A stretch of 64,000 bases of DNA. Origin: Escherichia coli O157:H7. Its GTDB lineage: Bacteria; Pseudomonadota; Gammaproteobacteria; Enterobacterales; Enterobacteriaceae. Within the stretch, counting starts at the first letter, position 1, and each line of letters opens with the position of its first letter. Of this stretch, positions 20,101-23,100 are shown one piece after another. The position numbers are program-made. Location of the stretch: the NCBI RefSeq assembly GCF_013167455.1, contig NZ_CP038328.1; one strand, written 5' to 3'.

Positions 20101-23100
20101 TAACCACGTAATCCAGTTGCGTGTCGTATCCGGTAGATCCAACGCTCATCGGTAGCGTGGTTTTTCGCTGGTGGTTTTTTTCTTCCGCCGGCTCTTTCCC
20201 GCGCACCCGTTCCAGGTATTCGCGCCAGTTCTCCCGCATATGGCTGTGCATCCCTTCGGGGTAATAATTCGCATCAGTTACACCCGCCGCCGCCAGCTTG
20301 TGCGCAATGGCATTAATATTTGATGGCCTGATGTGGCCTGCCTTGTACAGCCGGACACAATAGCGCCCCTCGTCGATGATTCTCAGTTCTGCCAGTTCAT
20401 CCAGTTGATCATCAGCCAGCACAACGGGAGGCACATTATCGCCAGCCAGTCGCCCGTCCTGTTCCTGCCACTGTTTCGCATGTGCCCAGGCATCACTACC
20501 CGCAAAAATAATGACTTCGGTCATCTTGTCGTAAGGCTGTTTTTTTAAGTTCGGTGCGCTTTTCATTTCTTGCCCCTGAATCCGTTAACCATGGTTTTCA
20601 GCTTCTGGATGTTTGCCCGTGCCCTGGCGTTGCTGGTGGGCACGTTATGCGGCGCGGTCTGTACCAGAGAAAAATCACGCCGGAACTGATAAACAGGCAT
20701 CACGCAATCATATTCGTAACCTTCACGGCGGTAGGTTACGCGCCGTTCTTCCACGCCCTTAATCATTACCGTGCCGCCGTACTGGTCGCGGTAAATATCA
20801 CCGCGCGTAAATTTAGGGTGAGTGTTGCCACTGGCAGTTAAGCCAGAATATTTAAGTTTCATTATTTTTATTCTCCGGTGTGCTGTTCTTTATATCTGTC
20901 GTGCAATAGATCTATTTCTTGCAGTTCCATTATTACAGGCTCAAGAAGCGTTATTAATGCCGTGGCAATTCTTGATTTTTGTTTGTCGCGTTCATTGTCG
21001 CCAAGTGTTTCAAGCCATATGCGCAATATTTCCATCATGTTTTCACTGTGAGAAAGTGCAAGAAATGCGCGGTCTATTGTTTGGTGGTAAATATCACGCA
21101 TGGCTTACATCCTCAGGAAATTTTCTTCTATAACGCGCCTCTGCCACATATTCCGCATAATCGGCGGCGATATTCAGTACATCAAGCCCCGTTGATTTAT
21201 ATTCTCTCGTGGAAAGTAAGAAAAAAGCCGCTCTAATAAGTTCTGGCATTGACGAAAGCGCATCAGCCGCATCATCAGGAACGCCGGAAAATTCCTGTTT
21301 CAGGGAATTAAAACGATCATCACGCATAACCCCCCCATTTTCACAATCAGCAATCAGGATAGCTTTGGCCTCATTCAGCGCCGTATCAGCACTAAATTGC
21401 ATGACAGCCAGTGAGTGAGGAACGAAAGCACCGGCATATTCTGTTTCGCTGGTGGCGTGCTTATGTGCCCTGTCCGCGATAACAGAAATATCAATCAGCG
21501 CGTGCATCAGCGTTTTGATGGCTTCGGCGGCTGCGTCCGGTGTGGTTTTATTGTGCATAAAGCATCCCCTGAATATTCGTGTTAATCATTCCGGCACGTT
21601 TTGTGATTTCCTGTAATGATTCCCTTGTGGCGACAATTGCTTCATCTGGTAAGTGGTAATTACACACCACGCGACCTTTATCCACATTGACCAGTAGCTG
21701 CCCTGTGAATTTCTCACGAAACTGAATGCGGTTAAGGTCAGTAAGTGACAGATTAATCATGGCGCACCTCCTGACGAATACGGGCGGCAAATACAGCAAC
21801 ACAACCGGACGGGCAACGGTTACGCGCTTCGCGTTCCGTCCAGGCGGTTACGTGGATGATTTGAGATTCTCCGGCACTCAGTGCCAGAAAACGCCACACA
21901 AAGGCCGTTTGTGTGTGTACAAGGTGTGGTATATGATTTACGGCAACCATAACGGCTCCTAGTTTACGTTGTTGGTTAGACGCCCCGTATGTGTTCCCAG
22001 CACTGCGGGGCGTTGATTTTTGTGTAATGGCAAGTACAATGGTAATTACCATGTAGGTATAGCAATAAAGGGTAATTACCATGTCAACACCATTAGAAAA
22101 ACGTTCGCCTCCATACCAAATGCGATTACCGGAAGACTTCAGAGCGCAGCTAGAAGAAGCTGCTAAGGCCGATGGCGACACATCTTTAGCCACTTGGATT
22201 AAACGCGTTCTCCGCAAAGAATTACAGCAACGCGGCATAGAACCCAAAGGATAAAAACTATCAGCGCCGTGGTGTGAGGTATTACGGCGCATTGCTATGC
22301 AGGACAACACAATGACCGATAAAGAATTGACCAAAACATTATCACCGGCACGGAAAAGACGGCGCAGAAAGATAGAGCATGAATCAGAAAGATTCGCGCC
22401 ATGTGCTTTTGCCCTTGAGCAATTCCTTAAAGAGTACAGGGAAACGCGCCCATTGCAGGTATGGCAACGAACTGAACCAGACTGATAGCATTGCCCACCA
22501 GCCTGATAGCGGCTATCATCCCCGTGCTTATGTTTGGGATCATATACACATAAGGCGCAGCGGGTTATCTGTTCAGAAAGGCGGCTCCATTTCGGGGCCG
22601 CTTTTTTTATGCCTGAAAAACCCCAATTTTGTGGTTTTCCAGTCTCACCAGGGCGAACGAATCCCCGCCCACGTTCTGGCGTATATTCAATCTTCATGGT
22701 TATAGCTCTGTGTTCAGATGATTGATGTGTGGCGGCTGTGTGCCGCCAGCGTGATTAATGAACTGCCTTGCAGCTATCCTTCCAGGCCAGAACCTCGGAT
22801 AAAGACCAGCCAACGGAACGACCGCCAAGTTTACGACGTGATGGGAATTGTCCGGCCTTTTCCAGGCGGTAGCGACACGTACGGCTAAGGCCGGTTAGTT
22901 TTTCGCATTCTTTTTCACGTATAAACCGATCAGTGCTTAACACTATTGCCCCCTTTCGTTTCTTAAAGAGTCATCAGGTGTCTTATTGTGTCGTATTGTT
23001 CCCGCTAGAGTGATGAATGGCAAATACTGAGGATGTATGATTTACAGAAAATGAAAAAGTAAGAATAAAATCTTTTAAATTCATGTTAATACAAAGGCAT

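Follow-up and report, generated by a model that had tools for sequence, protein, structure and literature searches.

In the immI region of phage P22, small ribbon–helix–helix (RHH) proteins of the Arc/Mnt type and the sar antisense RNA control the antirepressor gene ant. A repressor of this type is encoded divergently from the operon and overlaps the operon promoter, and an antisense RNA of about 70 nucleotides (nt) runs from the complement of the start codon across the ribosome binding site to a GC-rich terminator at its end. Here, we describe a locus in which the same arrangement is seen, located in a 64,000-nt stretch of Escherichia coli O157:H7 DNA (NCBI RefSeq assembly GCF_013167455.1, contig NZ_CP038328.1), which as a whole is called the window below. 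The locus lies in the phage-inducible chromosomal island (PICI) EcCIEDL933 and comprises a gene for a 57-amino-acid (aa) Arc-like RHH protein, two palindromic sites and a predicted antisense RNA. Reading its sequence, we consider it probable that it forms a two-layer negative control module for the leftward early operon of the island. In layout, P22 immI is its closest analogue; the two differ in that one RHH gene is present here and two there, in that the first gene of the operon is Icd-like here and encodes an antirepressor there, and in that EcCIEDL933 is a phage satellite induced through AlpA.

Two further systems can be compared with this locus. In the immI region of phages P1 and P7 (c4, icd-ant), a gene of the Icd family likewise heads the operon, and its ribosome binding site is likewise masked by an antisense RNA. 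The c4 RNA derives by cleavage from the same transcript and works in trans, on the same strand, while the antisense RNA described here is encoded on the opposite strand. In the Staphylococcus aureus pathogenicity islands (SaPIs) the Stl/Rpr repressor gene is, as the RHH gene is here, divergent from the island operon and flanked by the integrase end on one side and the replication genes on the other. The usual fold of phage repressors is helix–turn–helix; this locus differs from Stl/Rpr in its RHH fold and in that Gram-negative PICIs are induced through AlpA. For these islands the question whether a global repressor exists has been described as "unclear", with AlpA acting as an activator, and activator-based induction has been called "a mystery" (Fillol-Salom 2018). 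The control module is known in kind, and it is found in a class of elements without an identified repressor; in both of the best-studied E. coli islands its location is precisely that between alpA and the early genes.

The RHH gene and its palindromic sites

The RHH protein is encoded on the plus strand at positions 22081–22254 and is missing from the annotation of the RefSeq O157:H7 records. These records place an opposite-strand "Icd-like" pseudogene (22104–22697) over the gene, because a minus-strand frame of 314 codons is open from 21753 to 22697. Searches returned 93 homologues of the protein, 56–58 aa long and 50–98% identical to it, from Enterobacterales, Pasteurellaceae and others (Escherichia, Salmonella, Enterobacter, Yersinia, Xenorhabdus, Photorhabdus, Serratia, Pantoea, Pasteurella, Gilliamella, Aeromonas, and Oceanimonas). 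For comparison, a set of 73 genomic loci related to the RHH gene was gathered from many genera. The RHH frame was intact in all 73 recovered loci, while the opposite frame contained stops in many of them. The plus-strand 57-aa open reading frame (ORF) is a real and conserved gene, probably of the Arc-like RHH kind. The converse reading, that the minus strand is the coding one and the palindromes are mere coding sequence, could draw on the length of the open frame (314 codons here and 409 in locus L075) and on the long forms contained in PHROG 29966. It is scarcely conceivable in view of the stops in the other loci, for which the long minus-strand ORF was rejected as a real gene, and of the Shine-Dalgarno sequence and ATG of the RHH gene, which stand at a fixed spacing after an RNA hairpin amid promoter, operator and RNA signals. 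The openness of the minus strand over the RHH gene is explained by wobble positions shared with the RHH frame; with about three sites at risk, openness by chance is, by our estimate, often expected. The 314-codon frame runs antisense through the RHH gene, the downstream ORF62 and the control region, so that the gene is masked by the RefSeq pseudogene; over-extended minus-strand forms of this kind appear to be included in PHROG 29966.

To place the protein in a family, sequence and structure comparisons were combined. The protein matched PHROG 228 "Arc-like repressor" over residues 6–55 (E 1.5e-6). In the AlphaFold model (pLDDT 78) an extended N-terminus was followed by a helix (18–31), the turn DGDT and a second helix (36–50), which corresponds to the strand–helix–helix topology with a short Gly-containing turn, the strand itself forming only in the dimer. 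The top Foldseek matches in the PDB were nearly all RHH-type DNA-binding proteins or antitoxins (AmrZ, Arc, CopA, ParG, NikR, and CopG), at E above 1. An hhalign comparison placed PPYQMRLPED in register with the DNA-reading strand of P22 Arc, which we take to be PQFNLRWPRE (E 0.0011, probability 20%), and opposite APYSVRMPDS of a Mnt-like protein encoded elsewhere in the window. A profile search of PDB sequences found AmrZ only at E 0.85 and was otherwise dominated by spurious designed helical repeats. Two results keep the sequence-level support modest, as the match to the Pfam family Arc (PF03869) was below threshold (E 0.041), and the match to the YlcI/YnfO family (NCBIfam NF041551; E 0.0014) reached 18.7 bits against a cut-off of 30. 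Several weak but concordant results hence support the RHH fold, not strongly at the sequence level, and together with the homologues they bear out the original prediction, which had named this ORF an RHH gene.

The reading of the gene as the RHH antitoxin of a type II toxin–antitoxin pair was considered, and it was rejected because no co-operonic partner gene is conserved next to it. A homologue of alpA in convergent orientation starts 110–170 nt past the RHH stop codon in about 20 of the 73 loci, which leaves no space there for a co-directional partner. ORF62, the gene downstream in E. coli islands only, matched no toxin family in a search that left out PADLOC and the toxin libraries. In Photorhabdus (L031–L035, ∼3630–5160) two tandem cassettes of antisense RNA plus RHH gene lie about 1.2 kb apart, and in the second of the RHH copies the N-terminus is divergent or disrupted.

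Two palindromic sites precede the RHH gene. The first, O1, is a 14-bp perfect palindrome, ATGGTAATTACCAT (22039–22052), with the core GGTAATTACC at 22041–22050; the second, O2, reads GGGTAATTACCATGT (22070–22084) and has the same core at 22071–22080. The site centers are 30 bp apart, which is about three helical turns and therefore places both sites on the same face of the DNA. The original prediction had described two copies of a perfect 12-bp palindrome. The duplication is real, but the exact 12-mer TGGTAATTACCA occurs once (22040–22051) and its second copy, GGGTAATTACCA at 22070–22081, carries one mismatch, so that the repeated unit proper is the 10-bp palindrome GGTAATTACC, with GGTAATTACCATGT as a fuller 14-nt unit. 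The core was found twice in the 64-kb window against 0.06 copies expected, and two or more copies were seen in none of 100 shuffles. The 12-mer with up to two mismatches was found five times against 2.6 expected, which alone is not significant. A search for further operator copies across the island, the surroundings of alpA included, returned chance-level near-matches only (17851, 21085, and 21654). A third near-copy of the core, GGTAATTACA (21655–21664), falls within the second gene of the leftward operon, which encodes 70 aa; as three one-mismatch copies of the core were found against 1.6 expected, it is at chance level. O2 overlaps the region from the Shine-Dalgarno sequence to the start of the RHH gene including its ATG (22081–22083), as had been noted originally, and also the spacer of a candidate leftward promoter.

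The two-site layout recurred in about 60 loci, with the first site right after a −10 element and the second abutting the start codon 30–31 bp downstream. The sequence of the sites differed between loci together with the N-terminal strand of the protein. The strand EKRSPQYQMRL was paired with GGTAATTACC or GGTCrTTACC, KTDQYQIRL with TGTAATTACA, RRGNPPFQFRL with TGTGTcATTACACA, and, in one Citrobacter locus, SPQFPMRL with GGTATATACC. The co-variation of site sequence with the type of DNA-reading strand supports a cognate pair of repressor and operator. Hence, by comparison of loci it is well supported that the palindromes behave as cognate operators of the 57-aa RHH protein.

Promoters and a predicted antisense RNA upstream of the RHH gene

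The rightward promoter of the RHH gene, P_R, was recognized on the plus strand at 22013–22040, with the −35 element TTGATT (22013–22018), a 16-nt spacer and the −10 element TACAAT (22035–22040), which scored 9/12 in the promoter scan. O1 follows directly after this −10, and the expected start of transcription, near 22047, is within O1. In type-A loci the elements TTGnTT and TAcAAT, TAAAAT or TATAAT were found at the same place. The candidate leftward promoter, P_L, lies on the minus strand at 22059–22087, with TTGACA (22087–22082) as the −35, a 17-nt spacer that holds O2 and TGCTAT (22064–22059) as the −10; its expected start, near 22052, is at the edge of O1. This arrangement agrees with the divergent control region foreseen in the original prediction, with operators placed on the −10 and start site of P_R and in the spacer and at the start site of the candidate P_L. 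If P_L is real, the two promoters point toward one another and their start sites overlap, and protein bound to O1 and O2 would block both.

The TTGACA of P_L is the complement of codons 1–3 of the RHH gene, and the choice of codons there bears on its reality. The Ser-2 codon was TCA in 54 of 55 distinct RHH genes, while four to six codons each were in use for the invariant residues Leu, Arg, Gly, and Ala. This contrast in codon usage was relied on because the loci were partly chosen by anchoring on the TTGACA motif, which makes the count of its conservation partly circular and weighs against P_L. A second point against it is that the −10 in EcCIEDL933 is poor (TGCTAT, three of six consensus positions), so that the island may have a weak P_L or none, and alpA may be the only source of transcription for the leftward operon. 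In other loci better −10 elements (CATAAT, TATGAT, TATTAT, and TGTAAT) were present at 16–18 nt. These sequence features make P_L a candidate promoter, directed leftward. Across about 60 loci, and with each kind of first gene, the leftward operon always began 125–148 nt away from the start of the RHH gene.

The best-conserved element of the control region is an antisense RNA, which had not been noticed in the original prediction and which covers the translation start of the Icd-like gene. It is predicted as a cis-antisense small RNA of about 78 nt on the plus strand (21945–22022), covering the Shine-Dalgarno sequence AGGAG (21960–21956) and the minus-strand ATG at 21950 of the Icd-like gene. 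The −10 element of its promoter, TATGAT (21932–21937, plus strand), is located within codons 5–7 of that gene. Position 21932, which had been taken as the start of the leftward operon, is the first base of this −10, and the Icd-like gene starts at 21950. In 41 of 41 distinct sequences the T, A, and final T of the −10 (TAnnnT) were invariant, 7–8 bases upstream of the predicted 5′ end (A, 21945). The codons under this element encode differing residues between loci (NHI, QHN, NSN, and NDT), and the proteins encoded downstream come from families with no relation to one another. At the 5′ end of the RNA the segment GCCA, complementary to the start-codon region, pairs with UGGU. A first stem–loop offers the anti-Shine-Dalgarno sequence CUCC in its loop and is followed by the linker yAGA, and a second one is a 14-bp GC-rich terminator hairpin (21978–22014) with a U-rich tail up to 22022.

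To evaluate this structure, the 41 distinct sequences were analyzed with RNAalifold, which returned three helices with 21 pairs. In these, 96.7% of the cells were paired and compensatory changes were seen at 14 pairs; none of 500 shuffles reached any of the five measures, and pairing fell to about 40% when the partner columns were slid as a control. Among the cells with G–U wobbles, 136 were valid only in the plus-strand RNA and three only in the minus strand. As the wobbles pair almost solely in the plus strand, selection has acted on the structure of a transcript from the plus strand, which is antisense to the leftward leader. The copy in the window has a minimum free energy of −33.5 kcal/mol (z −4.6). 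A covariance model, R1, built from 36 of the RNA sequences matched the plus strand in 67 of the 73 loci, 60–140 nt upstream of the RHH gene and always co-oriented with it. It also matched the island EcCICFT073 (52.9 bits) and two more E. coli islands outside the training set (L075 and L076).

The RNA belongs to no Rfam family. Rfam searches of the whole window at gathering score, and of 21700–22700 at E ≤ 10, returned only chance terminator matches for the region; C4/isrK had no match in either search. The sar family (RF00262) had no match in 21700–22700 at E ≤ 10, while a true sar RNA elsewhere in the window, on the plus strand at 42100–42166, scored 66.7 bits. The sole other match of R1 in the window was a weak one (18.4 bits, E 0.29) to this genuine sar RNA, which fits a similar design and not membership in the sar family.

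The position of the structured RNA on the RHH strand, directly upstream of the gene, could also mean that a longer RHH mRNA is made from the promoter at 21932–21937 and that the structure serves as its 5′ leader or attenuator. In keeping with this, the run of U residues behind the hairpin is broken (UUGAUUUUU). The run also overlaps the −35 of P_R, so that part of its conservation could be driven by the promoter; both features count against a separate terminated RNA. The leader reading is nevertheless very unlikely, since a well-placed P_R with a conserved −10 and the operators separate the hairpin from the RHH gene, and every aligned locus has a T-rich run behind the long GC-rich hairpin. The leader and the separate small RNA are not mutually exclusive.

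The classic layout of type I toxin–antitoxin systems has an antisense RNA over the ribosome binding site of a small and possibly toxic protein, and the module could accordingly be a safety catch on a toxic Icd-like inhibitor of cell division, in which the RNA is the antidote and the RHH protein merely regulates its own gene. This is distinctly unlikely, as the same cassette of RNA and RHH gene precedes three kinds of first leftward gene, which encode an Icd-like protein, a P4-type primase or a member of a 113–121-aa family, and as O2 lies within the candidate P_L. These neighbors were typed by extraction of the first ORF, after tblastn of the neighbor proteins of the window against the 73 loci had proved too insensitive. 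The first ten or so codons were alike (MADTQHNQT.., MANANSN..) across unrelated first leftward genes (L004, L008–L012, L018–L020, and others). Such likeness is expected if the control cassette reaches into the genes, and it suggests that the cassette recombines as a unit that includes the 5′ end of the first leftward gene.

Probable silencing and induction of the island

The preferred reading of the locus, a control module of two layers, would work as follows. In the first layer, RHH protein made from P_R would bind O1 and O2. O1 would cover the start sites of both facing promoters, while O2 would occupy the P_L spacer together with the beginning of the RHH gene, so that binding would limit the synthesis of the protein itself and shut off or roadblock leftward transcription of the icd-like, replication, and capsid genes. 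In the second layer, the RNA of about 78 nt would be transcribed from within the first icd-like codons and end at the hairpin and U-run; it is complementary throughout to the leftward mRNA at its leader, Shine-Dalgarno sequence, and start codon. With its anti-Shine-Dalgarno sequence offered in a loop, it would block translation of leaky or read-through leftward transcripts and probably trigger their decay.

Induction would then require that this silencing be overcome by AlpA. Published genetics showed that EcCIEDL933 and EcCICFT073 need AlpA for induction, that mutation of alpA abolishes the induction of EcCIEDL933, and that helper phages raise alpA transcription. The terminator between alpA and the RHH–ORF62 unit (22578–22608) is asymmetric. 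On the plus strand it is strong (−24.6 kcal/mol, with a U7 tail), while for leftward alpA transcripts it is weak (−12.3 kcal/mol, followed by UUUCU), so that a burst of alpA transcription could run through the RHH unit. Strong transcription from the alpA promoter may thus pass the terminator, run antisense through ORF62 and the RHH gene, displace the repressor and outnumber the antisense RNA. It is equally possible that AlpA acts directly at P_L.

The RHH protein had originally been proposed as the repressor of a lysogeny-type master switch, the target of a helper-encoded inducer. In that case it would resemble Stl of the SaPIs, and its inactivation by a helper-phage protein would be the induction signal. 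The RHH gene is indeed divergent from the early operon with operators on both promoters, and no repressor is known for Gram-negative PICIs (Fillol-Salom 2018). A repressor acting at the palindromes agrees with the conserved layout and with the co-variation of operator and protein strand; its place at the top of the hierarchy is not supported, and we regard the master switch as unlikely. Published induction proceeds through AlpA, no operator-like site is present near alpA, and the 57-aa protein has no domain beyond its DNA-binding fold that could receive an inducer. The analogy to Stl fails on the fold and on evidence for a target of a helper protein.

Two points also weigh against the two-layer module. 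The missing operator near alpA makes it unlikely that the RHH protein is at the top of the hierarchy, and over-expression of AlpA alone induces EcCICFT073 (Fillol-Salom 2018), so that repression by the RHH protein can be overridden and may be only fine-tuning. More generally, and tentatively, Gram-negative PICIs including EcCICFT073 and EcCIEDL933 may carry an immunity system, in which a swappable cassette of RHH-type repressor, operators and sar-like antisense RNA would keep the early operon silent, and AlpA would override it by convergent read-through rather than by simple activation. If the module does repress the early operon, it would provide concrete handles on the silence of satellites and on their waking by helper phages, namely its pair of operators, its single 57-aa protein and its RNA of about 78 nt; it would matter as well for the engineering of PICI-based delivery vehicles.

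The island, its relatives and the spread of the cassette

The island in the window is the capsid-forming PICI EcCIEDL933, as its gene content agrees with the published description of that prototype, a 15.4-kb island of strain EDL933 with int, alpA, rep and genes for capsid and packaging. The 1-kb region around the control module was 100% identical to many E. coli O157:H7 chromosomes. In strain TW14359 the island with the module sits between roxA and phoQ and encodes an integrase, an AlpA-type regulator, the Icd-like protein, a RepA-family helicase, SSB, PerC, the major capsid protein, a head decoration protein, and the small terminase. In the window the P4-type integrase of the island (int, 23308–24558, minus strand) adjoins roxA, as seen at 24559–24776. 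As tRNA and tmRNA genes are absent from the whole window, the attachment site of the island is not a tRNA gene.

The known island activator alpA (22755–22943, minus strand) was identified by phrog_2790 and phrog_66 "excisionase and transcriptional regulator", by its RefSeq annotation as a helix–turn–helix regulator and from the literature; it is convergent to the RHH unit and upstream of the leftward operon. The first gene of that operon, at 21753–21950 on the minus strand, is annotated in RefSeq and belongs to the Icd-like family of host cell division inhibitors, as its match to NF033153 (E 5e-18) reached 64.8 bits against a cut-off of 25. Four small genes separate it from the helicase gene (19166–20566, minus strand). 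Downstream of the RHH gene and co-directional with it lies ORF62 (22312–22485, plus strand; 57 aa from Met-6 of the 62-aa ORF), which encodes a small basic protein of unknown function (phrog_21027, E 3e-16). A nearly identical gene is annotated in EcCICFT073, there 3′ of a different RHH-like gene, and the 73 non-E. coli loci contained no homologue of it.

Other E. coli PICIs carry YlcI/YnfO proteins (NF041551) in the same position and orientation beside the same antisense RNA, with repeats of their own. The RHH protein differs from them in that its NF041551 match is below the cut-off, pairwise similarity is insignificant and the operator sequences are different. EcCICFT073 has the same layout with a 59-aa protein of this family and the repeat GGTGTGGCCCAC present twice, while in strain MDR_56 a 101-aa YlcI/YnfO protein was found with GTGTTTCA/TGAAACAC repeats. 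The antisense RNA is also kept in L076 (2599–2716) and L078 (8653–8790), next to YlcI/YnfO-family proteins with GTGTTTCA/TGAAACAC or GGTGTGGCCCAC repeats, and L076 represents a third variant of the regulator–operator set. Judged from these sequences, the comparison points to a swapping of specificity by cassette, in which the whole cassette is exchanged and its position kept.

Within the papers open to searching, a literature search for an RHH repressor or antisense RNA at this position of Gram-negative PICIs, for CP-933C small RNAs and for YlcI/YnfO returned nothing relevant, and a paper on helper-embedded PICIs mentions only immunity RNAs of the C4/isrK type. The region was matched in 704 of 5426 complete E. 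coli genomes, with the full type-A cassette covered in 328; the partial matches that were sampled (e.g., L076) had only the RNA part in common. The locus adds a widespread, covariation-supported family of antisense RNAs, present in E. coli and many other genera. A complete immI region of the P22 type is located in another prophage of the window (41220–42875). It consists of an ant-like gene (41220–42098, minus strand), the sar RNA mentioned above, an arc-like ORF (∼42401–42541, minus strand), and an 84-aa mnt-like gene (42621–42875, plus strand).

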